Assembly (NCBI RefSeq): GCF_026210795.1
Contig: NC_089430.1
Location: forward strand, 1,860,001-1,924,000
Direction of reading: 5' to 3'
Length of the DNA stretch: 64,000 nt
DNA from: Rhizophagus irregularis
Lineage: Eukaryota
Positions within the stretch are counted from its first letter, which is position 1. The number at the start of each line of letters is the position of its first letter. The notes beneath the pieces were generated by a model. It saw nothing but the letters and a program-made list of their open reading frames with translations. It made no database searches and was not told the origin of the DNA. This document shows positions 8,967 through 60,298 of this stretch, piece after piece. Made by a program: the position numbers and the translations under genes.

Positions 8967-11900
8967 TTACAAATTGTGATTAGTGATGATATAAAGATCA
9001 CAAAATTCTTTGAGCTGGTTAGCTCCCGAAGTTACAGCAAATTTTTTCATATTTTCCACATTCGACCTGGTAATCTTTCGCGAGAGCCTCAATTCCATCA
9101 TCTCTTTTAAATGGGCCAACTCATAACTATTTGCTAATTTAAGTAGATCTTCATAAAGTACAAATTTTGAAGTATCGGAATCAATCTTTAAACTTTTAAT
9201 TGCCACATCGATGTCCTGGCCATACAAGTATCGTAATAAGATTCTCATCGAGTTAGGTTTAATGTCATTCACAGTATTCTTAATCAGACCTGGATTTGCC
9301 GAAGAAAATTCTTTTTGAAAAAATTCAGAGCTTGCCGCAAGCATATATCGATTTGCTTTAATTTCTTCTTCATCCACAATAAAAATGATATCATTTAAGG
9401 AGGTTTCCTGATCAAACAAAAGATCAAATACGGCTTTTCCAATAATAATGGACTGATTGTGTAGACAAACGTTTATTTTATAATCTGGTCGTTTTACTTC
9501 CTTGACACCTGCACTTTTGAGCATGGTGGGATATTTTTGAAGGGCCAAACAAATATATCTATCCTCATCTATTTGACTATTCAAAATCAAATCTTTTATA
9601 GAGACCCAGTTATCGTCATCAAATGGGTCTTGATTTTTGTTGAAATTAAGGAATAATCTTTCACGTTCATGAATATGTTCTGTTAAGTCAATATCATTTT
9701 CCTTACATTCATCTTCGAGCCATTTATAAACTTCATAGACGTTGTTTTTAAAAACTCCAGCCCAATTTGTCTTCCATTCATCATCAACCCGTAAATTCAT
9801 ATATAAGTAACGAAGATGTTCGATTACAATAGTTACTTCCGGTTTACCAAGTGTTGGATATTTTTGAAGCACGTGTTTAGGCGGTACAACATCTTCTGCA
9901 ATCAAAGACATTTGACTCCACGCAACTTCCTTATACTTGGAAAGTACTATGTGATCGAAACAATCCAAAGTATTAGTACGAACATGATTCAAATTATAAG
10001 GTTTACCCAGATCTTTGGAAATTGGGATAAATTGAAATCTTTCCATTCCTTCTTCAAATTTAAGAGTGTCAATATTTTTATAGAAATAATCGATTAAAGC
10101 AAAACCTCGATAACGTGTGTCAGATGGAGGGTTCACTTTTTTCCCCAACTTCTCAATATACTTAGCGCAAATAATGAATGTTTCTTGATTAACCTTATAT
10201 TTAAATCCAATACTTGACAATTCATTTAAATATTTTAGATCATTATGAAGAAACATGCCCATGTTTCCACTAAAAATGGTCTTAAAAACACTATTATTAA
10301 TATCATATAGTTGATCAACTTTCTTTAATTTCTTATTATATGTGGGGAAACAGGGCTTATCCTTCAAATCTTTAACAACTTTACCATAATCGAGTATGCT
10401 GTTAAGAAAATTAACATAATGATAATCATATTCATTAGGGAATTCAACGTCTTCGAAAGTATACGAATAAACGTCTCGTTCTTGGACATCAAGTTTGATA
10501 AGACATTTTCGAACATCATCTGCTGCATACAAATAAATTTTGGAATCCTTTTTTGTTCGATAATGTTGAAATTTATTTGGCAAAATATACCCGCATGAAA
10601 TTGGTTTCAAAGCTGGTTTCGAATCTGGTTGTATCGGATCCGAGAGTGTTGGCCAAATAGGCAATGAGCGGATGAGTAATTTTAGATCCGGGTTAGATTT
10701 TATGTCTGCACAAAGTAAAAAAAAAAATAAAATAAAATAAAAGAATAAGCAATTCAACCATTTGTTTAGTCGCAAGGATGATAATATTTGTATACTTAAA
10801 ATTCTATGTAGCTACCTAATTCATCCAAATTATTTCGTAATAAGTCTCGAAATCCTAAAGTCTGTTCACGTGGTAAGAACTTGAAGAGAACGTCTACGCG
10901 GTCATTCTTGTCAGGTAAGCCTTCATTAATCAACTGGAAGATATCATCATTTTTTAATACAAGTTGAAGTACTTTAAATCCATATTCGACTATGCATTTT
11001 GGATAATTTCCAGTGACGGACGGAAAGGGCCAGTATTTTGAGATGGGATGATCTTTTAGATCTATTTCTTTATTTTTATGTAATTTGATAATTTCTTCGA
11101 GTAGTTTGCAATAAAGTTCCGGTAAGAAATCGAGCAAAATATACCTATTCCAACCAAGTTTCTGATGATCTATATCCGGTAGATCATCTTTATCTATTAG
11201 TAATTTTCCACGATCTGAACCTTGGGCCCAAGTTCCGTTAAGATGAACTGGCAAATTTATTGCATCCGGCAGTGAGAAAAAAGAATACATTCTACCCTTA
11301 AAGTTATCCTGAATATTCTCTGAGCTTTTAAGTATTGTAGCGATGCCTCCTAATACGCGTAAACGATATTTTCTCGCATATTCTTGTAGTTTTGAATCCT
11401 CAGGATTTTGTTGAGCACCATTAGTAATAATCCAATGTTCTTCTTGTTTATTGCCTGAATTGTCAGTTAATTCGATTTTTAACTGAAAAGTTTTAATTAT
11501 ACCATTGTTAATATACTTTCTTCGATTTCGAATATCTTCATCCAAATCGGTTATAACCGCTTTCCAAAGAGAAGTTATTTGAAATGGAGATGTAGTTTCA
11601 TTTATAAAGGAAGTTTCAATTGTCTCAATGTTTCGAAGGAATAAAAATTGAGAGGAAACAATTGATTTAATATCGGTGAGTAACTTGCGGACTTTCTTAG
11701 TAGTAAAAATGCTGTCAGTTATATCACTTGGTTCTTTCCTAAGTGGTAATCGAAAGAGAGTCCCTTCAAAAGTAGATCGAAAATCCATCCCTTCAATACC
11801 TTCAAAAGGGATCAATTGATCCTTTTTAGAGAAACCACCAATGCCATTATTGGGAATATGACCTCTAATACCACGTTGGGATAAATATTTCTCTTGAGGA

Positions 11901-12460
11901 TCCAAAAACGCAAAAGAATCACCACTTATAAAACTTGGAACATCAGTAAAATGATAGCACGAATTAAAGCCCAATCCATGCTTCCCAATTTTTGTATCAT
12001 CGCCTTGCTTTCCTCCAACGCGTATTTGCATAAGTGATTCAAAATCAGTTTCTTTAAATTTCGCATTATTAAATATCAAAATGGCTGGGCCTTGCCAAGC
12101 CTTCATTTCATTATAAAATAGAGAATCTGTAGGATGTGAACGGGCGTCAACTATCACGTGATATCGAGTAGCTCCAGCGTCATCGGCTATTTTTTTTTTT
12201 TTAGGTAAAATAAGTAACATATTTTTTTTTACAAAAGTTACAAAAGCGAAATAAAATTAATTTTTTTTAACTCCTTACCATTTTGAAGAAATTCTTTAAA
12301 TATACTCTCGAAAGGATAATCCTGGTAAAATATGGGGTTTAATAATGTTATTAAAAAGAATTATAATATATATTTTAAATCATAGATGAAAACCTACTTT
12401 TATGATATTACGTATGGACGAAATAAGTGTCTCATTTTGACCGTAAGATTGAAATGACAT
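8967..12460 (-). CDS. Sacsin-like (Hsp90/GHKL-type ATPase) N-terminal domain plus C-terminal BTB/POZ domain protein, copy A, ~1071 aa
   Basis: Exons 12460-12398, 12321-12279, 12186-10816 and 10705-8967 total 3216 nt in frame. Motifs: EFLQNADDAGA, KIGKHGLGFNSCYHFTDVPSFISG, GTLFRLPLR, LPVHLNG. BTB region: DIIFIVDEEEIKANRYMLAASSEFF...LLRYLYG...LLKLANSYELAHLKE. Confidence 0.92.
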
Positions 12461-21388: not shown

Positions 21389-24300
21389 TTACAAATTATT
21401 ATTAGCGATGATATAAAGATCACAGAATTCTTTGAGCTGGTTGGCTCCCGAATTTTCAGCAAATTGTTTCATATTTTCCACATTCGACCTGGTAATCGTT
21501 CGCGAGAGCCTCAATTCCATCACTTCTTTTAAATGGACTAACTCATAACTATTTGCTAATTTAGTTAGATCTTTATAAAGTGCAAATTTTGAATTATCAT
21601 CATCAATACCTAAACTTTTAATTGCGACATCGATGTCCTGACCATACAGGTATCGTAATAAGATTCGCATCGAGTTAGGTCGAATGTCATTAATAGTGAT
21701 CTCAATCGGACCCGGATCTGCCGAATAAAATTCTTGTCGAAAAAATCCAGAGCTTGCCACAAGCATATATCGACTTGCTTTAATTTCTTCTTCATTTACA
21801 ATAAAAATGATGTCATTTAAGGAGGATTCATGATCAAATAAAAGATCAAATACGGCTTTTCCAATAATAATGGACTGATTGTGTAGACGGACGTTTATTT
21901 TATAATCTGGTCGTTTTACTTCCTTGACACCTGCACTTTTGAGCATGTTTGGATATTTTTGAAGACTCAAACAAATATATCTATCCTCATCCTTTTCACT
22001 ATTCAAAATCAAATCTTTTACAGAGACCCAGTTGTCGTCATCAAATGGGTCTTGATCTTTATTGAAATTAAGGAATAATCTTTCATGTTCATAAATTTGT
22101 TCTGACAAGTCAATATCATTTGTCTTGCATTCACCTTCGAGCCATTTATAAACTTCATAGACGTTGTTTTTAAAAACGCCAGCCCAATCGCTTTTCCATT
22201 CATCATCAACCCGTATGTGTGTATACAAGAAACGAAGATGTTCGATTACAGTAGTTGCTTCCGGTTTACCAAGTGATGGATACTTTTGAAGTACGTGTTT
22301 AGGCGGTACAACATCTTCTGCAATCAAAGACATTTGACTCCACGCAACTTCTTTATATTTGGAAAGAACTATGTGATCGAAACAATCTAAAGTATTAGTA
22401 CGAACATAATTCAAATTATAAGGTTTACCCAGATCTTTAGAAATTGGAACAAATCTAAATCTTTCCATTCCTTCTTCAAATTTAAGAGTGTCAATATTCT
22501 TATAGAAATAGTCGATTAAGGCAAAACCTCGATAACGTATGTCGGATGGAGGATTCACCTTTTTTTCCAACGTTTCGATATATTTAGCGCAACCAATGAA
22601 TGTTTTTTGATTAACCTTATTTTTAAATCCAATATTTGACAATGCATCTGAATATTTTATATCATTATGAAGATACATGCCCATGTTTTCACCAAAAATG
22701 ACCTTGTAAACACTATTTCGAATATCATACAGTTGATCAATTTTCTTTAATTTCTTATTATATGTGGGAAAACAAGGCTTATCTTTTAAATCTCTAACAA
22801 CATTACTATAATGAAGTATGTCGTTTAGAAAACGAACATATTGATAATCATATTCACTAGGGAATTCAACGTCTTCGAAAGTATACGAATAAACGTCTCG
22901 TTTTTGGACACCAAGTTTGATAAGACAATTTCGAACATTATCCCCAGAAGCATTCAAATAAATTTTAGAATCCTTTTTTGTTCGATAATGTTGAAAATTA
23001 CTTGGCAAGATGTACCCGCATGAAATTGGTTTCAAATCTGCTGGTAGTATCGAATCTGAGAGTGTCGGCCAAATAGGCAATGAGCGGAGGAGTAATTTTA
23101 GATCCGGATTAGATGTTATGTCTACGCAAATTTAAAAAAAAAATAAAAGAATAAGCAATTCAACCATTTGTTTAGTTGCAAAGATGATAATATTTGTACA
23201 CTTAAAACTCTAAGTAGCTACCTAATCCATCCAAATTATTTCGTAATAAGCCTTGAAATCCTAAAGTCTGTCCACGTGGTAAGAACTTGAAGAGAACGTC
23301 TGCGCGGTCATTCTCGTCAGGTAAGCCTTCATTAATCAACTGGAAAATATCATCATTTTTTAATATAAGTTGGAGTACTCTAAATCCATATTCGACTACG
23401 TATCTTGGATAATTTCCAGCGGCGGACGGAAACGGCCAGTACTTTGAGATGGGATGATCTTTTAGATCTATTTCTTTATTTTTATGTAATTTGATAATTT
23501 CTTCGAGTAGTTTGCAATAAAGTTCCGGTAAGAAATCAAGCAAAATATACCTATTCCAACCAAGTTTCTGATGATCTAAATCCGGCAGATCATCTTTTTC
23601 GATTAGTAATTTTCCACGATCTGAGCCCTGAGCCCAAGTACCGTTAAGATGAACTGGCAAATATATTGCATCAGGTAATGAGAAAAAAGAATACATTCTA
23701 CCCTTAAAGCAGTTATCCTCTGAGCTTTTAAGTATTGTAGCGATACCCCCTAATACGCGTAAACGATATTTTCTCGCATATTCTTTTAGTTTTGAATCCT
23801 CAGGATTTTGTTGAGCACCATTAGTAATAATCCAATGCTCTTCCTGTTTATTTTCTGAATTATCAGCTAATTCGATCTTTATCTGAAAAGTATTAATTAC
23901 ACCATTGTTAACATACTTTCTTTTATTTTTTGTATCTTCATTCAAATCTGTTATAATCGCTCTCCAAAGAGAAGTTATTTGGAATGGAGCTGTATCTTCA
24001 TTTATGAAAGACGTTTCAATTATTTCAATATTTCGAAGGAATATAAATTGAGAGGATGCAATTGATTTAATATTGGTGAGTAATTCGAGAACCTTGTCGG
24101 TAGTAAAAATGCTGTCAGAGATATCACTTGATTCTTTCCTGAGTGGTAATCGAAAGAGAGTCCCTTCAAAAGTAGATCGAAAATCTATTCCTTCAATGCC
24201 TTCAAAGGGAACTAATTGGTCCTTATTAGAGAACCCATCAATGCCATTATTGGGAATAAGACCCCTAATACCACGTTGGGACAAATATTTCTCTTGAGGA

Positions 24301-24841
24301 TCCAAAAACGCAAAAGAATCACCACTTATAAAACTTGGAACATCAGTAAAATGATAACACGAATTAAAGCCTATTCCATGTTTCCCGATTTTTGTATCAT
24401 CACCTTGTTTTCCCCCAACGCGTATCTGCATAAGCGATTCAAAATCAGTTTCTTTAAATTTCGCATTATTAAATATCAAAATGGCTGGGCCTTGCCAAGC
24501 CTTCATTTCATCATAAAATAGAGAGTCTGTAGGGTGTGAACGAGCGTCAACTATAACATGATATCGAGTAGCTCCAGCATCATCAGCTATTTTTTTTTTT
24601 AAAAAAAAAGGATATTTCAATTAAAATTTTAACGAAAGTGAAATAAATTGAATTTTAACTCCCTACCATTTTGAAGAAATTCTTTAAATATACTTTCGAA
24701 AGGATAATCCTGGTAAAATATTAATTTAATGAAACCATTAAAAAAAAATGCACTTTTAAAGCATAAATGAAAATCTACCTTTATGATATTACGAATGGAC
24801 GAAATAAGTGTTTCGTTTTGACCGTAAGATTGAAATGACAT
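21389..24841 (-). CDS. Sacsin-like ATPase plus BTB/POZ domain protein, copy B
   Basis: Same four-exon structure as copy A (MSFQSYGQNETLISSIRNIIK | DYPFESIFKEFLQN | ADDAGATRY...). ORFs 23202-24620 and 21389-23080 are open. Confidence 0.92.
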
Positions 24842-47300: not shown

Positions 47301-50300
47301 TGCCAGTCCATGTTCATCATATGTGTTACTATTGGTATGCATTGCGATTAGAGTAGAGCTTTCCAGCTCGTTTGCAAAAATTCTGTCAATAATAGAATAC
47401 AGATGATGTAATTCAATTGACGTTCTTGATTTGAAGAAATCGATTTCATGATAAAATTCTCTGTAAACTAGATTTTATAATAAAATTATATCAAAATTAT
47501 TAATTGGTTTAAAACATGAAAAATATTTTATTTTTCGCTATTTAATACTATTATTTAGAATAATTCAATTTTAAATAATGCCAGCCGGCAGTAAACCAGT
47601 TTAATTCAATATTTCTTTTTTTCATATAAATTTAAACGGTTATTTTGGCTATTTTGAATACAGTAACCTTGCAATGTCCTAATGGCTTACTAGTTGCACC
47701 ACACATAAGAAATTTCATTTGATACATGTTTTTTTCTTCCAAACGAAAGATTTTATCTGTTATAGTTTGTAAGTTCATAACAAAAGTCATGATTTTAACA
47801 ATCTTTGCAAGAAAATAGATAATAGTCTACATGAATTTCAGCTATTCTTCTTTAATCACAAGTATAATAAATGGAGTCTATAACTGAAATAACAAGAAAA
47901 AAAAGTCGTTAGTATGGCTGGTACCAGGTGGAAGAAAAATCAACCACCATAGCGTAAAAAAAAAGTCTCCAGAAAGGTGATGGTATCATACTCAAGTGGA
48001 CACCCTAGAACTTGCACAATAAAGATTTTTTTTTGTTTTTTTTTTATTTTTGTTAATTTTTTTTTCTTTTTTTCATTTCTTTTTCTTTATTTTTTCATTT
48101 TCATTTTTTTTCACCTTTTTTCTTTTTTTTTTATATTTTTTTTTTCTATTATTCTGTATTTTTTTTCATTTTCATTTTCATTTTCATTTTTTTTTTTTTT
48201 ACCTTTTTTTCTTTTTTATATATATTTTTTTCTTTTATTTTTTGTTACTTTTTTTTAACCCCTACTGTAATGGTCCTTTGGGATACCACTGACAATATGA
48301 CACCATGCATACAAGCCAGGTGCATAGGCTAACCCTCCTCCAGGAAAGCCAGTTTCTCATATATACTCCCTTTCAACTTTTTTTATCTGTAAGCCTGTAT
48401 CATTAAAACTATGCAAGCAGGGAGCGCATGCTTACCTTAATATTGGTCTACCATAAATCTTAATTTGTAAATACAATCCATACTGTATTACATTCTTTCA
48501 TCTTCAGTAGAAAATTCAAGATTATATTCTTTATTTTCAACCTTTGTAACATTGACCTTAAATGTTGAGTTTGAGTATTGTTTATTGTTATTTCATTACC
48601 AACCAAGAAAGAATTGTCACAAGTATTGCCTAAAATTAAAAAAATAAAAAAAATTTTATCTTGAATATATTTTTCCATAAAATAATAAAATGTATCTTTT
48701 TAATATTGAAAAAACAAAAGAAGACCTAAAGAACCCATCTGGTAAAAGATATTCTTGGTTTATTAGTTTCATCTGACAAGTTACTTATTGAAGAGAAAGT
48801 TCGTAAAAAGGAAAATTTCATATTGAATATATTTTTCCATAAAGTACGAGTTTAATTTCTCTAAGTTCGTGAGTTTGTGAGTTTGTTATATGAATATATT
48901 TATCTGAAGTTTTTGATAAAAAAATGAAAAATGAAGTATTGAGAAATTTGAGGGAGTTTGGGTATATTTATACTTTTTTAAAAAACCTTTTACACAGTAG
49001 ATGATATGTGGAACTTCGATGTACAAAATTTACAAGATCAAGATTTGTTTATATATTTTACTATATTGTTTCATAAAAAAAATAATGACTCATAAAATCT
49101 TGAATCTTGATAAAAAAATCTGATCTTGATAAAAAATATCTCAATTTTTTTTAAAAAAAATGTAAAAAGAAGTTTAATATTGAAAATCCTCATGAGTCAT
49201 TACTAATATTTATAGGGGTATATCGATCGTGAGTCACATTTATCACATCGATCGATTCCTAATTTTCTATGTATTAAATCTGGAAACTAGTAATATGAAT
49301 CCTTTTAACTTCATTGCGGAATCTTAAAATATTATATCATAAAATTATCATGTAAAAAAAAGGAAATAATCACAAATAATAAAAATTCAACACTAATTCA
49401 ACACGAAATACGCTTGATACTTTAAGAATATTAAGTATGAACTCTAAATACGGGTTCTTATTTATGACGTTTCAGTACTTATCAAATCTCCCTGTTAAGC
49501 TTTCTATGCTTTCCTTGTTAGAAAGATCTATAACCTCGCATGCTAAGAAAGCAACACTCTGTAGCGTATACGCTCTTGGCGCTCCTTATAAGGATGCCGC
49601 AGAAATAATTTTTTTTTTTAAAAAAAAAAGTGATTTTTTAATTTTATAGTACTTTTGTTTTTGTTACAATTTTTAAAAAATTAACAATTAGAGTTAAATA
49701 ATAATTTACATTTGAATTAATTTTCACAATTTCGCAATAAACTTCTACTCTCTTCTTCATTTTCACTTATCAACACTTTAAAATTTCGAAAATTATTTTC
49801 CTTTAACTTTTTAAACTCACTTAAAAACCTTATAAGTTTTCTTTCATAATGTCGTTCTATAATATGAACGGTAATAAAAAAAAATTGTTCAATAACCTTT
49901 GATTCAATTTTAATATCATGCTACGCTACTCCATCTATTTATTTTTACGGTTATTGATGCAGGAATTACTATCTCTGTTCCAATATTTTAAGTAAATTTT
50001 TCTTTCTCTGAATAATATTCTACATGTTTCGCTGTTTCTCAAGTATTTCTATAAATTCTTCGATAAAGAGCAATATAATCTAAAAGTTCATCTATGAAAA
50101 CTAAACATAATTTAATTTCATTATCAAATCAAAATTAAAGTGCAACATATAAATCTCACCCAAGTAATAACTTATCAAGGTTACCTTCAAATTTGAGAAT
50201 CGAAGAAGAATTTTCTTCAAAAGGTCACAAATCATTTTTAATTAAAAGGAAATATTACATTAATGCACTCGGATATCCTTAGCGACTATCAAATTTGATT

Positions 50301-52171: not shown

Positions 52172-52550
52172 GAAGAGGGGTCACGACTCGTTTATCCGTA
52201 ACCCGTTTACCCTGTAAAAAAAGTCTATCCGTTTTTTATATTCCAACTTTTTTTCCGTAAAAGGCTCATATTTCCAGAATTAATAACCTTATATCACGGA
52301 ATTTTTTGAATTATTTTCATTTTTTTGTGAATGGAACCGTGAAAGGCACATTCTTACGGATTATTTACAAAAAAATAACGGATAAAATTTTTTATAGGGT
52401 TAATCGGATACAATCCGGGTATATTAGGGGAATACAGTAACAAATGGGTAAAAATGGCTGGCCGTGTTTGTATCCGTTTTTTATGTTGATACAAATATAC
52501 CCGAGTAAAGCCGGGTTATCTACCCGGGTATGCCCCGGGTAATTACTCTA
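52172..52550. mobile_element. hAT-like relic with 8-bp TSD, hosting a nested MITE
   Basis: Direct repeat ATCAAAAT at 52164-52171 and 52551-52558. Right end ...CCGGGTAATTACTCTA; subterminal ACCCG/CGGGT repeats; left TIR degenerate. Confidence 0.65.
52210..52399. mobile_element. MITE family B (CCCT[G/A]TAAAAAA termini), nested copy
   Basis: Termini CCCTGTAAAAAAAGTCTATCCG / CGGATAAAATTTTTTATAGGG. Related in inverted orientation to 57415-57604. Confidence 0.8.
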
Positions 52551-53067
52551 ATCAAAATTAAAGCTTTCCAGAATCAAAGGTTTATATAAATTACATTTAG
52601 GAACTTTACTAGAAAAATGGACCCTGAAACAATGAAACATGTATCATTAGTGATAGTCATATAATTTTTTAATTTTATTAACATTGACCAAAAAAAAATT
52701 AAATTTTTCGGTCAGAATTAAGTAATGTGTTGTCAGTCACTAATAATGAGCTTTAGCAACGCTTATTATATAATACTTTATTTTTTAAAGTTTAACAATG
52801 TCAAAGTCTTAATAAATTCAATAAATATCTAATACTCAGATATATAAACGGGTATAAATGGGTATTTCCCGTTATGGAGTTGTTATGATCCGGATCCAGA
52901 AATTCTGCACAGTCAGTTATTTAGCCAGAGAAGGTTAGTCTTGAGTGCAATTGTCACCGTGAGTCATAACTTGTAACTGCATTAATAACGTTAAATTCCG
53001 AATGATGCCGCAATTGAATTAATCAATATTTAAAGACAAAGCTTTCTTACATTTTTTTTCTTGAATA

Positions 53068-53273
53068 ATGGATTATATAAGTAAGAGTCACAGAGTCATT
53101 GATTTATCTGCTAGAATTTATTCTATTAATTAACTTCTAACCTTTTTTTATTTATTTAAGCTGATGCGTGCTCGTTTATGAATTGTGGCAAAGAAACGTC
53201 ATGCATTGTCTGCGGGAGTAAGCGAGGCGGTGGGGCATGCCGTGAACATTGTACATGCGGTAATTGTAAGTAA
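53068..53273 (+). CDS. Cys-rich micro-peptide 1, 41 aa: MDYITDACSFMNCGKETSCIVCGSKRGGGACREHCTCGNCK
   Basis: Exons 53068-53080 and 53161-53273 total 126 nt. GTAAGA...TTTAAG intron. Homologous to three downstream copies. Confidence 0.8.
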
Positions 53274-53700
53274 AATCTCTTTTTTATTTTCGTAAATCAT
53301 AATGACTCAATGACTCTGTGAAAAAAGAAAATGAAAAGTTATATTTCTATCATTTATATCCATATTTACAATAAACAAATTTTTTATTTTCAATTTATAA
53401 ATTTTTATAAAACGTAATACGTTATTATAAACTGAAAATTTTATACTTGATAAAAAATATTTCCATTTGCAAAGATGTATATAAAATTGATGAGAGGATT
53501 ATTTTGAGCTAAACTAAAAATAATTTCCTGATGTCAAAATGGTCTTTATACTATTTGTTTTATTACCTCCTATGTTACTTAGAATTTCGCCATGGTCAGA
53601 ATGAAAGTTTAGGTAAAATACTTATGATTTTTAGTTTAATTTATAAATAAGTAACTTGCCTTATTGTATCGTAGTTATTTTAAAAGTCAAGATACTTTAA

Positions 53701-54092
53701 CCATTTATCGCCGTTTTCGAATTGGTGTGATCGTCGATCAATTTCTATAATTGACTCAAAATAAAATCAATATCATTTGATCTGTGTAATGCTAAGCCAC
53801 CATCGTATAATATTCACCTTTTATTTTTGTTATAGCTTATAAACCGATTCCTAAAGACCTGATTGATTCCTATAGATTCCAAAGTTTCTTAATAACTCCA
53901 ACCAAATAAAAGATAATACTTTTTCATTTTATTTTTATAATTTCTAACTATTTTTTCGTTTCTATCTATTTTTTTCATTAGTGTAAATAAGCTGTATTTG
54001 TATTTCTTGTTTTTGGTTGCTTTCGGTATTCGCAGTTTTATAAATAAAATATATCACCTGATCACAGTAATTCGAAAATGGCGATAAAAAGT
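53701..54092. mobile_element. piggyBac-like MITE flanked by TTAA
   Basis: TTAA|CCATTTATCGCCGTTTTCGAATTGGTGTGATC ... GATCACAGTAATTCGAAAATGGCGATAAAAAGT|TTAA. Confidence 0.7.
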
Positions 54093-54194
54093 TTAAATGA
54101 AACATCACATATTGTAAATATTACTTGGCTAGACCATAAAGAAAAATTCAAGAAAATTCTAATGGCGCTATAGTATTGATATTAATATTTCATA

Positions 54195-54610
54195 TAACAT
54201 CTGGAATAGGTTGCTTGCGACATTTTAGGATATGATGATGGAAAGTTTGTCAGGGATTTGCCGCAAGCAATTACTCGATTTTCAGATTCTATCAACAAAC
54301 GAATTAAAAAAGTAAATGTTCGAATGTTTGATTTATCTACTTTAACAAATGCATCTATTATTCTATTACTACCAGTCGAATTATCTTGTTAGATACGATG
54401 AAAGAATATTTTACGTGGTGGCTAATCGCTGTGGTAAATTGATAGTATCTTGGAAGATTGATTACACCTTTAAGAAAAGTTGTAAAAAAAAATTTCATGT
54501 TTAGATAGGCTAGAACCGATCATTGCTCAATTCTTATCACTTCTTAATTAATCAAATTTATTCTTATACGAAGTTTCTTTTTTTTTTCCCTTACGAGTTT
54601 ACAATTATAT
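54195..54610 (+). pseudogene. Decayed paralogue of the DUF4419 gene
   Basis: GCAAGCAATTACTCGATTTTCAGAT, GAAGATTGATTACACCTTTAAGAAAAGTTG and GATAGGCTAGAACCGATCATTGCTCAATTC match 51230-51550. The 3' flank matches 51910-51955. Multiple deletions and stops. Confidence 0.85.
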
Positions 54611-55313
54611 GTTTAAATTAGAAAATTCGTAAACATACAGTATTTATAAGATAACATTTTTCCGCTCAATTTTTTTTTTTACGCGTACGCGAGAACTTAC
54701 TGTGTTTGTATAATAGTTTGTAATAAAGTTAGAAAATAGAAATTGTTATTTTGCTGACAAAGTTAAAACTTAGCAATGGAAAAAATTGTTTTTTCCTCCT
54801 TATTATTAAATAAACGTTTTTATTAAATACAAATGGATAATAAAAACTTAGTAACAATCACTTTATATGATCATGTTCTGTTATTAACATTAACTATACT
54901 TAAAACTACAAATAATATATAATCTTCTACGATATCATATAACTACTAAGTATCTTTAAAGATTGAAGATCATAATTAATTTATATTTGTCAATGTCGTT
55001 AGAATTATTTGTATAATCCTTTTCTCCTTTCTATTTAAACTTTTAAACTTACTATATTTTCATATATTGGTAAATCTCTTACATCCATAAATTCCAAATT
55101 TCTATCTTATCGTCATATCGTGATCGAAAAAAAATTTTTAATATTGACATTAACAAATATTTATAATGCGTGATGCAGGGGCACATTGACAAATAAATTG
55201 TCACAGTGAGTCATAAATAGTAATACGTTAAATTCCGAAGATTTGTTACATTGAGTTCAGGTTATTTTTTTTTATTTAAAGGCAAGCTTTTTCCTACACT
55301 TTTTTAAAAAATC

Positions 55314-55496
55314 ATGTCTTATAAAATAAGTAAGGTCACAGAGTCATTAGTCTTCTACTAACATGTATTCCGTTATTAACTAACTTTTAACTTTTTTTAT
55401 TTAAGCTGGTGTGTGCTTGGTTTTTGATTGTGAACTTGATATAAAATGCAGTAAATGTAATGCAATAGACATTGTGGCTGTGGTCAATGTAAGTAA
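55314..55496 (+). pseudogene. Cys-rich micro-peptide 2, frameshifted: MSYKITGVCLVFDCELDIKCSKC/CNRHCGCGQCK
   Basis: Exons 55314-55329 and 55406-55496 total 107 nt, 4 nt shorter than copies 3 and 4. TGT AA TGC replaces TGT AAG ATG TGC. Confidence 0.75.
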
Positions 55497-56669
55497 AATT
55501 TTTTTTATTCTCATAAATAATGACTCAATGACTCTGTGACTCTGTGACAAAAATAAGCAAATTGTAAATTTTTATAAGTAAGTTATGCAATTTCTTTAAT
55601 TATATCAAATATTATACAATAAACATAATATATTCATCATGTTCAACCAATTTACAAAATTACGAGTTCAATATATATGATGTATTATTGTAGACTGAAA
55701 ACGGTATGTTTTATGTTCTCTCTTCGTCATAAATATCTTTGTAGAGTTATTTAGAAAAAAATTAAATGAACATATAAAATTTATTCTTTAAACTGTCATT
55801 CATCATATTGGCAAACCACCCTCTAATAATAGAAAAAAAGAAGGTAACCTATAACTAATGAACGAGATCATAGCTATAAATCTAAAATCAGGTGGTAACG
55901 AAAAATATTAACGGGTAAAGTAGAAGACAGTTCCTATAAAATAAAACCCACGTATTTATCTTTCACTCCGGAAGGAATGCTACACGTAAATACTGTAAAG
56001 TGTAGAAAGATGGGCGGCCAAAAGATTTGCATAAGCAAAAAATATACAAATACCTCGTGATCCAAGCGTTATCAACGTCCGGGTAAAGAAATTGCTAAAA
56101 AGGAATTGTGAATTTGTTTTCTAATCACATGACGTATCACCGATGCATTACTTTTGATCGTTGACTTAAAAAAACTAATTTTTAAAGATTAAAAATATGC
56201 CTTCATAGAAAAGTTAAATAATTAAAATAACCTAAAATCATTATAGTATAAACTTAATTTATTGATAATTTCATTAATTGAAAATTTTTTATTTATGCAT
56301 ATTTGCATATAAAATCAGTTAATTTTTGCATTAATATTGTATGAATTTTCTAAATATTATATTTATATGAAGTAATACACTATATTTTAGTAATAATTAA
56401 AAATTGTAAATATATAAGTAAATTTTTCAATCGCCGAATTTATATTAGATTAATCTAAGCTAAATCGGGTCGGTCGAGATAATTAATAAAGATCGGCATA
56501 ATTAACAGATAAATTGATACCGGGTCGACTCGCATCTAAAGGTACACTGACAAAATATTTGTCACATTGAGTCATAAGTAGTAATTGAATTGATACGTTA
56601 AATTCCGAAGGATCAACAGATTTTTTCTTTTATTTAAGACAAACTTTTGCCTCGCTTTTTTTAATAAAA

Positions 56670-56854
56670 ATGTCTTATGAAAGAAGTAAGGGTCACAGAG
56701 TCATTAGTCTTCTACTAAAATGTATTCCGTTAACTAACTTTTAACTTTTTTTATTTAAGCTGGTATATGCTCGCGTTTAGAATGTACTTTTAGTGTATCA
56801 TGCACTAATTGTAGGTCGTGCAATAGTCATTGTACCTGTGGTCTATGTAAGTGA
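56670..56854 (+). CDS. Cys-rich micro-peptide 3, 36 aa: MSYERTGICSRLECTFSVSCTNCRSCNSHCTCGLCK
   Basis: Exons 56670-56685 and 56760-56854 total 111 nt. GTAAGG...CTAAC...TTTAAG intron; TGA stop. Confidence 0.82.
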
Positions 56855-57414
56855 AATTTTTTTATTCTCATAAATAATGACTCAATGACTCTGACAAAAA
56901 TAAACATAATACAAATTCTATCGAGTAAGTTATAATACTCTTATAAATCCTATATTTTATATATTTCTATCATTATAAACACTATACCTATATATATAAT
57001 AAACAAAAATTTTTTTACATGTATATTCATCACATTCTGATATTTTCAATAAATTTATAAAATTATAAAGTTCAAAACACGTTATGCAAAACTATTATGC
57101 ATTATTAGAAAGATTTTACTCTCTGGTAAAATGTATTTCAAATCCCTACTTTGCAAGATAAGGATCGTTACAGCAGAGAACATAATACATATGTCTAGAG
57201 TTATTTAGAAAAAATCAAATGAAACTATTCTTTTAAACTGCCATTCACCATATTGGCAAACCCACCCTCTAATAACAGAAAAAAGGAAACCTATAACTAA
57301 TGAACGGGATCATAGCTATAAATCTAAAATAGGGTGGTAACGAAAAATATTAACGGGCAAAGTAGAAGACAGTCTCTATAAAATAAAATCCCGTATTTAT
57401 CTTCACTCTGGAAG

Positions 57415-57604
57415 CCCTATAAAAAATTTTTATCCGAATATTTCCATTATTTTTCCGTGTCTTCCGTAAAAAATCCGTGAAAATGAGGATATCCGTGTTA
57501 GCGAGATGAAAATTTCCATGATTTAAGGCTATAAATTCCATGAAAATGATACATTCACGGAAAAAACATGGAAAGATAAAACACGGATCAGATTTTTTAC
57601 AGGG
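57415..57604. mobile_element. MITE family B, second copy
   Basis: Termini CCCTATAAAAAATTTTTATCCG / CGGATCAGATTTTTTACAGGG. Empty site TCACTCCGGAAGGAATG in the preceding tandem unit (~55963). Confidence 0.88.
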
Positions 57605-58331
57605 TAAGGAGTGTTACATGTAAATACTGTAAGGTGTAGAATGATGGCGGCCAAAAGATTTCATCAGCAAAAAAATATACAAATACCTCGTGATCCAAGC
57701 GTTATCAACGTCTGGGGTAAAGAAATTGCTAAAAATAGAATAATCACTCATTTTAAGATTAAAAATATGCCTTCATAACAAAGTTAAATAATTAAAATAA
57801 CCTAAAATCATTATAGTATAAACTTAATTTATTGCTAATTTCACTAATTGAAAATTTTTTATTTATGCAAATAAAACCAGTTAATTTTGCATTAATATTT
57901 TATGAATTTTCTAAATATTATGTTTATTTATATTGTCTTTCAGAAGTAATACACTATTAATCTTTTATATTTTAGTAATAATTAAAAATTTCCAATATAA
58001 AAGTATAATCTTTATCAGTTTTATATATTCCAAATAAAATTTTGGGAAATTAGAATTTATATTCGATTAATCCAAGCTAAATCGGGCCGGTTGGGAGAAA
58101 TTAATTAATAAAGATCGGCATAATTTTTTGATTTACAATATAGAAATTGATACCGGGTCGACTCGGGCAAGAAGAGCATCTATAACCAGAATAAACCAGA
58201 TGCGGGTGCACTGACAAAATAATTGTCACATTGAGTCATAAGTAGGAATTGAATTGATACGCTAAATTCCGAAGGATTGACCCATTTTTTTTTATTTAAG
58301 ATAAACTTTTGCTTGCTTTTTTTTAATAAAA

Positions 58332-58517
58332 ATGTCTTATAAAATAAGTAAGGGTCATAGAGTCATTAGTCTTCTACTAAAATGTATTCTGTTAAACTAA
58401 CTTTTAACTTTTTTTATTTAAGCTGATGCGTGCTTGTATTTTGGATGTGACCATAATGTAAAATGCAGTAATTGTAAGATGTGCAATAAACATTGTTCCT
58501 GTGGTTTATGTAAGTAA
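58332..58517 (+). CDS. Cys-rich micro-peptide 4, 36 aa: MSYKITDACLYFGCDHNVKCSNCKMCNKHCSCGLCK
   Basis: Exons 58332-58347 and 58423-58517 total 111 nt. GTAAGG...CTAAC...TTTAAG intron; TAA stop. Confidence 0.82.
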
Positions 58518-60298
58518 AATTTTTTTATTCTCATAAATAATGACTCAATGACTCTGACAAAAATAAACATAATACAAATTCTGTCGAGTAAGTTATAATA
58601 CTCTTATAAATCCTATATTTTATATTTCTATAAACACTATACCCATATATACAATAAACATAAATTTTTTTACTATATATTCATCACGTTCTGGTATTTT
58701 CAATAAATTTATAAAATTATAAAGTTCAAAACATGTAATGCAAGCTATTATGCATTATTAGAAAAATGTAAAATGTACATTAATTTGTATACCCCAATAC
58801 CCTTCTTTGCCTATGAGGTTATTAAAAGTTGGTCTAGGGCTTATAGAAATACCCATTGGCATTGTTAAGGATAACAACAGTAGAGCAGCTGTTTCATACA
58901 AATAGCCCATATAGTGTTCTGTAAGACCCAGGACTACATATAGATTACGTTATGAAGTTTATGGATCGTCCTCTGGTGCAGTGACGCTTGGAATATCACT
59001 ACATACATTGCGATACCCACTTATCTGCGTATTCCTTAAAGCTACTTTGTACACCAATTTAAATTCCAAAGCCTTTATTTCTTCAAATATATAGGACTCT
59101 TATTTTTCAGTCAAGAACTTTCGAATGTATGCCATCCTTAATGATCCTTTGAGAATGCGTAAAAGATACATTATTAACTCTAGAGTTTACTGAATAATTC
59201 TTTATGAAATACAATCGATAATTCAAGGTTATCTAGTTTAACACCGTGTTCACATATTAGTTAAAAATGCTTGCCTCTATATTACGCTCTTATTTTCTTA
59301 CAATGTTATTCATTTTTTTTACACATTTTTTGGGTTTAAAAGGAAAAATTTGTTTAATTCCTATATTTATCGCTTCAACTTTTTTTTTGATAATGGCGTC
59401 ATAATTTCCATACTTTCTTTATTAAGCATGTTATCCTTAGAACTAAAGGCATAATTTACGGTTTATGATGATTAACAATAAAATTGTAATATACATACGT
59501 GCATGTTCATGTGATTTTCAAATTTACCAGTAAGTGTTTTTGCGTTTCCAGATATTTTAATTTCTGGACAAAAATGTCCGGAAAATATCCAGGTAATATA
59601 CGGAATGAATTATATATCGAAAATGAATGTCCGGAAAACATCACGCACCACAATAAAATTTGTGTAACATCATCCTATTCGAAGAAAATTTAAGCGAAAG
59701 TTTCATACTTTTATTTATGTAAACCTTAAGAAAGACCTTACGAAAAACCTTATGTATGTAGTTTATATTCTTGCTTAATTTATAAATATTGATTAAACTT
59801 ATTTTTTTTTTTACTTTAGAAGTCGGAATGGTAATTAGAAAAATAAAAGTCGTACATATGCTAAAGTAATTACTAAAACCGAAAGTGGCCCACCCTTGTT
59901 TAAAAAAAAAGGCTAAATATAGAAACATTGTCGCTACATTTTTTTTTTGTAGTCTAAATTGATTTACTATTATCTTCCTCTTTCAGACATGTCACGTGAT
60001 TCTGCATACGTCCTGATCGTTTCAGTTATTAGGGAGTAGGGGCTACGGTAAAAGAAAGGTTTCATGTATTTATTTACTTGAATATAATGTATTTTGTTAA
60101 TTATGAAATTTCTTTTTTAAGAAATATTTAACAAGACGGGAGTTACAACAAATTAATAAGATTTTCTGAGAAATTTACTATTAAAAGGTACAATAGGTAC
60201 AATCAAAAAGAAATAAATAAGCCTTTTTTTTCTTTTTTTTCTTTAAAAAAAAACAAAAAAAAAAATTTGAACTTAGTCTCTCAATTACTTTCATAAAA

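Follow-up and report, generated by a model that had tools for sequence, protein, structure and literature searches.

Four small paralogous exons of Rhizophagus irregularis are each joined head-to-tail in RNA, the donor at the end of the exon being linked to the exon's own upstream acceptor exactly at GT/AG sites. They lie on the + strand of a 64,000-nucleotide stretch of contig NC_089430.1 (positions 1,860,001 to 1,924,000), referred to below as the window. Such joints were present in 174 raw RNA reads from four runs of two studies, with 114, 9, 22, and 29 reads for copies 1 to 4; their position was unambiguous ('both' = 0), and the shorter side of the joint reads reached 69–75 letters. The RNA runs, three of the four labelled PolyA, were chosen by species label and are related to the sequenced DNA through that label only. 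Read evidence was taken from tables, in which no single read links a joint to exon 1 or to the 3' UTR. The initial annotation had proposed back-splicing at these donors, as opposed to transcripts that always read through them; the joints in all four copies agree with the former. Our favoured reading, held tentatively and at slightly less than even confidence, is that transcripts pair through the flanking repeats and yield both circles and linear mRNAs with a repeated exon, and that the linear mRNAs are translated from an in-phase exon 1 ATG into a poly-metallothionein-like protein.

Gene layout and head-to-tail joints

Exon 1 of copy 1 (53041..53080, ATG at 53068) has 13 coding nt in phase 1 and is followed by an 80-nt GT..AG intron (53081..53160) and the 105-nt joined exon (53161..53265). 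In copies 2, 3, and 4, the coding part of exon 1 together with intron 1 occupies 55314..55405, 56670..56759, and 58332..58422, with 16 coding nt in phase 1 and introns at 55330–55405, 56686–56759, and 58348–58422. Their joined exons are 83 nt (55406..55488), 87 nt (56760..56846), and 87 nt (58423..58509) long. All four exons end after the first letter of TGTAAGT(A/G)A. The final Cys-Lys-stop codons noted in the initial annotation do contain the donor GTAAGT (53266..53273 in copy 1) at every exon end, but in copy 2 they are out of frame with its own ATG. Likewise, the predicted stop-free exon was found in copies 1, 3, and 4 but not in copy 2, which is frameshifted, 4 nt shorter than copies 3 and 4, and runs into seven stops in three turns. 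A likely poly(A) signal, AATAAA, is located at 53370..53375 of copy 1, and RNA depth in run X21 stops near 53400.

At copy 1, joints accounted for 105 of the 137 reads placed (24/43, 48/60, and 33/34 in three runs, all from poly(A)-selected libraries). The intron was not covered, with depth 0 over 53093–53156 in 3/3 RNA runs, and exon 1 was represented by one read of run X22, which spans about 53041–53080 according to depth bins and ends at the exon 1 donor. No joint of exon 1 to exon 2 reached the listing threshold of at least three reads in the four RNA runs, and RNA corresponding to the two-exon peptide gene of the initial annotation is minor there. Copy 1 reads were mostly at least 99% alike.

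An origin of the joints in DNA (processed copies of the exon arranged in tandem at another place in the sequenced strain) or in a library artefact is highly improbable, since four loci are each joined exactly at GT/AG in two studies and a contig of X17 (depth 136) is colinear at copy 1, with 0 differences and without the joint. What leaves it some weight is the link of RNA to DNA by species label and the scope of the contig check, which covers copy 1 in one contig set of unrecorded data kind and unestablished strain match to the RNA runs. As in exonic circular RNAs, the joint is at canonical splice sites and, for copy 1, absent from genomic DNA; the exon is repeated in frame in RNA with no genomic duplication.

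The main rival to our reading is that all joints come from untranslated circular RNAs of 83–105 nt. Back-splicing would then divert the pre-mRNA, as an off-switch or with a stable by-product, and the sole protein would be a monomer of 36–41 residues from a rare exon 1–exon 2 mRNA. We regard this as a serious possibility, though one that we rather doubt. Intramolecular pairing is expected to be easier than intermolecular pairing. The depth of copy 1 was 31–57 over the exon and 0–3 in the flanks, including the distal 3' region, so that a linear model needs roughly at least 20 rounds per mRNA and circles are the simpler account. Some copy 1 inserts were about one turn long, at about 109 nt (adapter begins at 53231 in five reads), which counts against linear repeats. 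The single exon 1 read and about 10 read-through reads at this copy are compatible with a plain, minor monomeric mRNA, and the frameshifted copy 2 is joined head-to-tail nonetheless. Small fungal genes are known to make circles (PMC3946582). On the other side, joints dominate in poly(A)-selected libraries, and a two-exon version in cis and a joint between copies, both described below, also count against this account. Some reads (about 10, 15, and 13 in copies 1, 3, and 4) continue past the donor to the 3' region, which indicates that linear ends exist. Joint reads with 70–75 letters on the shorter side cover more than one turn of the 87-nt exons, which rolling reverse transcription could yield too.

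The exon circularisation or inter-unit splicing suggested in the initial annotation is supported by the joints in four copies and by three reads (two starts) linking the donor of copy 1 to the acceptor of copy 4 (53265 to 58423) in frame, although joints alone suit circles and linear forms alike. These three reads may represent just one or two molecules. The copy 1–copy 4 joint is colinear, and could arise by cis splicing of a precursor of 5.2 kb; since the first 11 letters of the two exons are identical, template switching is possible as well. A loose end at 53265 in X22 was considered as a sign of a new paralogue, which was dropped because the positions were those of copy 4 (6), copy 1 (2), and library adapter (4/4 remaining).

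Endless frame and cysteine units

The joined exon forms an endless frame in copies 1, 3, and 4 and in 3/3 homologous metagenome exons (L001a, L001b, and L002), the exon identity between the window and the L001/L002 lineage being 47–59%. Each turn of these six intact exons contains seven Cys and a 5-residue linker spanning the joint. Within a turn, the Cys are spaced 4,5,2,2,3,1,5 in copies 3 and 4, L001a, L001b, and L002, and 4,5,2,8,3,1,5 in copy 1. In L001/L002 the joint coincides with the seventh Cys codon, whereas in the window copies it lies three codons further on. The seven Cys and the linker stay constant across this shift, while the monomer length before the first Cys varies, which argues against untranslated circles. 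However, in-frame closure from a single ancestral origin has a one-in-three chance of arising by luck, and the conservation of the linker counts as a single event, separating two lineages.

A phase-1 ATG was found in all six units having exon 1, the coding part of which is 13, 16 or 37 (or 22) nt long. At the donor, 7/7 units use the codons TGT and AAG; the inner Cys codons are 23 TGT and 16 TGC, and AAG makes up 67 of the 348 Lys codons in ten window ORFs. In L001, two such exons are present in cis, and the 198-nt GT..AG intron between them begins at this same donor. Rolling-circle translation of the circles themselves into a Cys-rich polymer is unlikely. The endless frame in three of the four window copies and in the three homologous exons would suit it, and human cells were reported to translate synthetic 129-nt circles lacking an IRES (PMC4639774). 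But an in-frame Met is absent from four of the six intact exons (copy 1 has one, copy 3 has none), 87 nt is less than the 129 nt tested, and the conserved in-phase exon 1 ATG and the terminal Lys-stop would be left to the monomer alone. Besides, apparent circle translation elsewhere was traced to linear concatemers, according to 10.1101/2021.03.23.433163 and PMC7544230.

With 7 Cys per 29–35 residues (8 in the window monomers) and CxC and CxxC motifs, the predicted exon products are small and Cys-rich, as metallothioneins are, and their composition makes them likely metal-binding, metallothionein-like units. No Pfam relative, metallothionein families included, was found for the four exon peptides, such short queries having low power. 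The RanBP2 zinc finger PF00641 scored 20.9 bits against a cut-off of 27, for copy 1 only, and 4Fe-4S ferredoxin matches had E 0.33 or worse. The Atlas search gave a best value of 0.84 (RanBP2-type, a lead only), and the PDB search revealed no relative (best E 0.27). A profile search of 1.84 billion protein representatives yielded 0 matches at E 0.001, with low power at 30 positions. No earlier report of such a head-to-tail exon system was found in the literature searched.

Flanking inverted repeats and upstream sites

The inverted repeats of the initial annotation were recovered, with exact reverse complementarity of 53088–53102 to 53307–53321 in copy 1 (15 bp; upstream arm 53088..53102, downstream arm 53303..53321) and of 55335–55348 to 55527–55540 in copy 2 (14 bp; downstream arm 55521..55540). 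Copies 3 (arms about 56689–56706 and 56875..56893) and 4 (about 58351–58367 and 58539..58555) have shorter perfect pairs, of 10 bp and 9 bp, respectively. Pairs of the observed length were reached in 1, 0, 11, and 57 of 500 shuffles for copies 1 to 4, and the perfect pair of copy 4 by itself is thus not beyond chance. Folding predicted 15, 26, 26, and 18 flank-to-flank base pairs at p>0.5, and RNAalifold predicted the arm helix in 6/6 units. Covariation of the stem across homologues, to which the initial annotation had looked, did not appear: two-sided changes were found in 0 of 14 arm-helix pairs (RNAalifold, six units). In an in-line register, a C-G to U-A swap is present in L001b and copy 4, and a G-U pair is kept in L002. 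Rfam gave 0 matches at E 1 over 52800–58900, hence no known ribozyme. In viral contigs, the 16-mer of the downstream arm occurred at 45 loci, and the donor and upstream arm together at 0; prokaryote genomes gave 0.

TGA(C/G)TCA is the AP-1/Gcn4 bZIP site, here a candidate only. As previously noted, each ATG is preceded by TGAGTCA, at 108, 107, 102, and 100 bases in copies 1 to 4 (52960..52966, 55207..55213, 56568..56574, and 58232..58238); that of copy 1, AP-1/Gcn4-like in sequence, is a likely promoter element. RNA depth was zero over 52981–53028, with the copy 1 TGAGTCA just outside the stretch examined. The bZIP stress module offered in the initial annotation agrees with this upstream site but not with the arms. 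It is very unlikely that the motifs are a dense bZIP (AP-1/Gcn4/Yap) site cluster acting on DNA, with head-to-tail splicing as a side effect. Such a cluster would explain why nine TGA(C/G)TCA sites fall within 5.7 kb against eight in the other 58.3 kb of the window, although the copies are not independent, and why the full site precedes each ATG, upstream of the RNA depth onset at copy 1. Yet full sites, found upstream in 4/4 copies and in the downstream arm of 7/7 units, occur in the intronic arm of 0/7. The orientation is opposite on the two sides, GAGTCA being restricted to the upstream and TGACTC to the downstream arm in seven units; this polarity is needed for pairing, not for a near-palindromic bZIP site. 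The fixed donor codons and the swap and G-U pair mentioned above also speak against the cluster.

The third proposal of the initial annotation, that the repeats are ends of a mobile element carrying the exon, is barely credible. Short inverted repeats do enclose a stretch of 200 nt, but in all units homology extends well past each arm, covering the promoter, exon 1, and the 3' region. Duplication involved entire units of 1.4–2.2 kb, and no direct repeat of the MITE/TIR kind is seen next to the arms (12 bases on either side, by eye).

Proposed mechanism and comparison with known systems

In our favoured reading of circles together with translated exon repeats, the donor, joined head-to-tail to its own acceptor in all four copies, would be brought there by pairing of the arm just inside intron 1 with the arm 30–55 nt past the donor. 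The predicted stem begins 4–8 nt from the intron 1 donor and may slow normal exon 1 splicing. Pairing within a transcript would give a circle and pairing of two transcripts would give trans-splicing, the product of which would retain one free arm per end and could be extended further. Late removal of intron 1 would then produce a capped, polyadenylated mRNA of the form exon 1–(exon)n–Lys–stop, coding for a metallothionein-like polymer, a character suggested by composition, whose length would depend on splicing rather than on the genome. That the same flanking repeats can give circles and trans-spliced RNA alike was described in PMC6283421. A bolder version, plausible and held with only slightly less confidence, is a fungal gene family whose purpose is the polymerisation of a single exon. 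Its short conserved inverted repeats would drive repeated trans-splicing between identical transcripts, its stop-as-donor would decide on growth in each round, and a 200-nt gene would thereby make metal-chelating proteins of tunable length, including mixed chains with neighbouring paralogues.

If the chain reading is true, a long series of likely metal-binding units could be encoded by one short exon. The linear form would be a natural case of a repeat protein made mainly, and under selection, by iterative trans-splicing, with RNA processing achieving what metallothioneins of Cryptococcus, Tremella, and tunicates got by DNA duplication. The circle form would represent an unusually small, dominant, and apparently dedicated circRNA family with minimal arms of 9–15 bp. 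In either form, the units provide a 250-nt natural minigene for studying translation across endogenous head-to-tail joints, and suggest that a group of plant symbionts has candidate metal-handling genes that are still unannotated.

The circular RNAs of Sry and of Alu-flanked exons are generated by back-splicing between inverted repeats on either side. Compared with known exonic circRNAs, the candidate circles described here are very small (83–105 nt), have arms of just 9–15 perfect bp that are conserved across diverged paralogues, take their donor from the final exon of a gene with two exons, and have an endless frame in all intact units. Shared with exonic circRNAs, including those described for S. 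pombe (PMC3946582), are the joining of a donor to an upstream acceptor, reverse-complementary flanks, and a single exon. The infinite ORFs of rolling-circle translation (PMC11724312, PMC4639774) likewise have a length divisible by three and no stop, whereas here an in-frame Met is missing from most intact units, and their size is below that of the circles tested there.

Tandem Cys-rich blocks, with seven Cys per block in the fungal ones, are described for CnMT1/CnMT2 and TmMT (PMC4755600), AcMT1 (PMC12508003), and OdiMT2 (PMC8283569), and the capacity of such modular metallothioneins increases with repeat number according to these sources. No sequence similarity to these proteins was detected. 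Their repeats are DNA-encoded, unlike those proposed here, and the TmMT block C-x-C-x3-C-x-C-x4-C-x-C-x2-C (PMC4755600) differs from the spacing 4,5,2,2,3,1 plus a 5-residue linker.

A close parallel in design is provided by the SmPoMuc mucins of Schistosoma mansoni, as described in PMC2576457, and by rat COT, cited there. In both, one exon is likewise flanked by short complementary intron sequences, of 12–13 nt there and 9–15 nt (perfect) here. SmPoMuc transcripts repeat the exon head-to-tail and in frame, to 25–100 units and beyond the genomic copy number, as proposed here. Linear repeats were demonstrated for SmPoMuc, whereas here we infer them. The long SmPoMuc genes have up to 20 genomic repeats, while each gene here has one exon copy (two in L001). 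Unlike in SmPoMuc, the last Cys-Lys-stop codons also serve as the donor, and the head-to-tail joint is the main RNA seen.

Head-to-tail joints in RNA reads

Four raw-read runs labelled R. irregularis (at most three samples from two studies; 11 million reads per run, roughly a quarter of its total) were aligned to positions 52900-58800, where four neighbouring units on the forward strand each contain one Cys-rich exon. A total of 174 reads carried head-to-tail joints, all exactly at the predicted donor and acceptor sites. The joint of copy 1 (53265->53161) was found in 24, 48, 33 and 9 reads per run, that of copy 2 (55488->55406) in 7, 0, 2 and 0, that of copy 3 (56846->56760) in 2, 14, 6 and 0, and that of copy 4 (58509->58423) in 12, 7, 10 and 0. 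The GTAAGT donor is in use, linking the end of the exon back to its own beginning. In run X22, 3 reads with 2 starts carried a forward joint, 53265->58423 (GT..AG), which connects copy 1 to copy 4. Among its options, the initial annotation had proposed a pre-mRNA stem favouring exon circularisation or unit-to-unit splicing into concatemeric Cys-rich proteins, and the head-to-tail and unit-to-unit joints in these reads bear that option out.

Despite its frameshift, copy 2 (55406-55488) has head-to-tail joints in RNA, the fewest of the four (9 reads), and they span 83 nt; therefore, the short length is present in the RNA strain too. Reads at 56742, 55479-55540 and 56931 came from a further paralogue outside the window, whose exon starts with GT, as in the metagenome homologues L001 and L002, and was read unspliced by 18-25 reads per run in X21 and X22. 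At 56871->55527, eight reads in X22 and one in X21 read through the donor and come from another paralogue, whose flanks are partly like those of copy 3 and partly like those of copy 2.

Unit architecture and homologues

The units are spaced 1.4-2.2 kb apart and share TGAGTCA 100-108 bases 5' of the ATG, an exon 1 of 13-16 nt ending in phase 1, an intron of 74-80 nt, and the Cys-rich exon with T|GTAAGT at its last Cys-Lys-stop. Perfect inverted pairs between intron 1 and the 3' flank measure 15, 14, 10 and 9 bp in copies 1-4, lengths matched by 1, 0, 11 and 57 of 500 shuffles, and folding predicts stems with bulges, of 15-26 pairs at p>0.5. From acceptor to donor the exons measure 105, 83, 87 and 87 nt, and the Cys frame has no stops in copies 1, 3 and 4 when the exon is repeated head-to-tail. 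The repeats, upstream TGAGTCA and GTAAGT donor described in the initial annotation were confirmed, but copy 2 had to be corrected: at 83 nt it is 4 nt shorter than copies 3 and 4 and acquires 7 stops over three turns.

At 52950-53000 and equivalent positions in copies 2-4, L001 and L002, the upstream site lies inside a longer conserved block resembling the intronic arm and followed by a second conserved 14-mer. This block is likely a promoter and possibly the origin of the arms. Three further TGA(C/G)TCA sites are clustered at 49086-49236, outside any unit.

The GC content of the window is 21%-33%, and its ORFs include many kinase-like, BTB-like and F-box-like ones; a kinase flanks the array on one side and DUF4419 (Pfam) on the other. 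Such gene content suggests a glomeromycotan (arbuscular mycorrhizal) fungus. A repeat element (57415-57604 and 52217-52306, a 90-nt inverted match) has inserted in the interval separating copy 3 from copy 4, and collects numerous reads derived from other loci. A separate tandem duplication is seen in two large gene pairs similar in sequence (8967-12256 and 21389-24620, reverse strand).

A pattern scan of metagenome contigs revealed two loci. L002 contains a single complete unit, whose arms are longer. L001 (132-600, reverse strand) contains exon 1 and two exons in cis, 94% identical, the first without an upstream arm and the second following a remnant of exon 1 whose donor is changed. They are linked by a 198-nt GT..AG intron starting from the same donor, where splicing would join them; by its sequence, L001 looks as though a unit had been duplicated and had become a gene of two units. 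The exons of both loci are 87 nt long and 47%-59% identical to those of the window. Since they begin with GT, the joint there rebuilds the seventh Cys codon; the window joint lies three codons later, giving Ser. In the alignment, one lineage has 9 additional bases at the 5' end and the other has 9 at the 3' end. All intact exons have 7 Cys per turn, with 5 residues separating the last Cys from the first of the next turn.

Donor TGT and AAG are fixed in all seven units, and the inner Cys codons are mixed (23 TGT, 16 TGC). GAGTCA occurs upstream only (8 copies) and TGACTC downstream only (16 copies). RNAalifold, run on six of the seven units (the first L001 exon was omitted for want of an upstream arm), recovered the arm helix, with covarying pairs at 0 of 14 positions. 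Viewed in the in-line register, a single C-G pair is replaced by U-A in the second L001 exon and copy 4, and a single A-U by G-U in L002, changes that are only suggestive.

Possible forms of the spliced RNA

The arms are predicted to pair, bringing donor and acceptor together, and the same arms could pair between transcripts. A trans-spliced product would retain the unspliced intron-1 arm 5' and the downstream arm 3' and, having one arm on each side, would be able to grow. Excision of intron 1 would leave exon 1-(exon)n-Lys-stop. Translated linear exon repeats of this kind have, in our estimate, somewhat less than an even chance. They are favoured by the in-phase ATG in exon 1, the lack of Met in four of the six intact exons, the conserved period, the two-exon gene in cis in L001, and the fact that the reads come from poly(A) RNA.

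At copy 1 (53161-53265), fine-scale alignment showed that 105 of 137 aligned reads carry the joint, with a depth of 31-57 over the exon and 0 in the intron. Exon 1 was represented by a single read ending at its donor, and an exon 1-exon 2 joint was not found at the listing threshold of at least 3 reads in the four runs over 52900-58800. Read-through depth directly past the donor was about 8, 2 and 0, then dropping to 0-3. This depth ratio speaks for circles, as do the short inserts and the fact that back-splicing in cis is easy. Non-coding circles accompanied by a monomer we regard as somewhat less likely than translated linear repeats; rolling-circle translation seems improbable. A contig of set X17 covers the copy 1 stretch with zero differences and no joint. 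Reference-like reads extending beyond the donor, counted by subtraction and possibly including cross-mapped paralogues, numbered about 15 for copy 3 (56760-56846) and 13 for copy 4 (58423-58509). In X22, the loose end that follows 53265 resolved into sequence from copy 1, from copy 4 and from adapter. Linear repeats and circles probably coexist, as both forms are reported to do for 20%-35% of human non-colinear joints (PMC6283421).

The encoded unit and known systems

The exon-encoded unit may be termed metallothionein-like by composition only. All its Pfam matches were sub-threshold, a profile search of 1.84 billion proteins found no match, and Atlas and PDB gave only weak Cys-motif look-alikes. 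Full-text searches, covering few subscription papers and no supplements, showed among the top 10-20 rows of each no publication describing this exon family, nor any describing metallothionein-like exons of these fungi that are spliced head-to-tail; the loci could be included in supplementary gene or circRNA lists. By term counts, metallothionein and trans-splicing are absent from the main text of a recent genome paper on these fungi (PMC10234402).

As far as the available portions of these sources show, the closest known work comprises exon repetition in SmPoMuc (PMC2576457), fungal circRNAs (PMC3946582), concatemers from complementary-intron vectors (PMC7544230; 10.1101/2021.03.23.433163), circRNA translation (PMC11724312, PMC4639774) and modular metallothioneins (PMC12508003, PMC8283569). 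If it binds metal, the unit would act in the manner of the 7-Cys blocks arranged in tandem in metallothioneins of Cryptococcus and Tremella (PMC4755600), but its Cys spacing is unlike theirs, and it was therefore kept out of that family.
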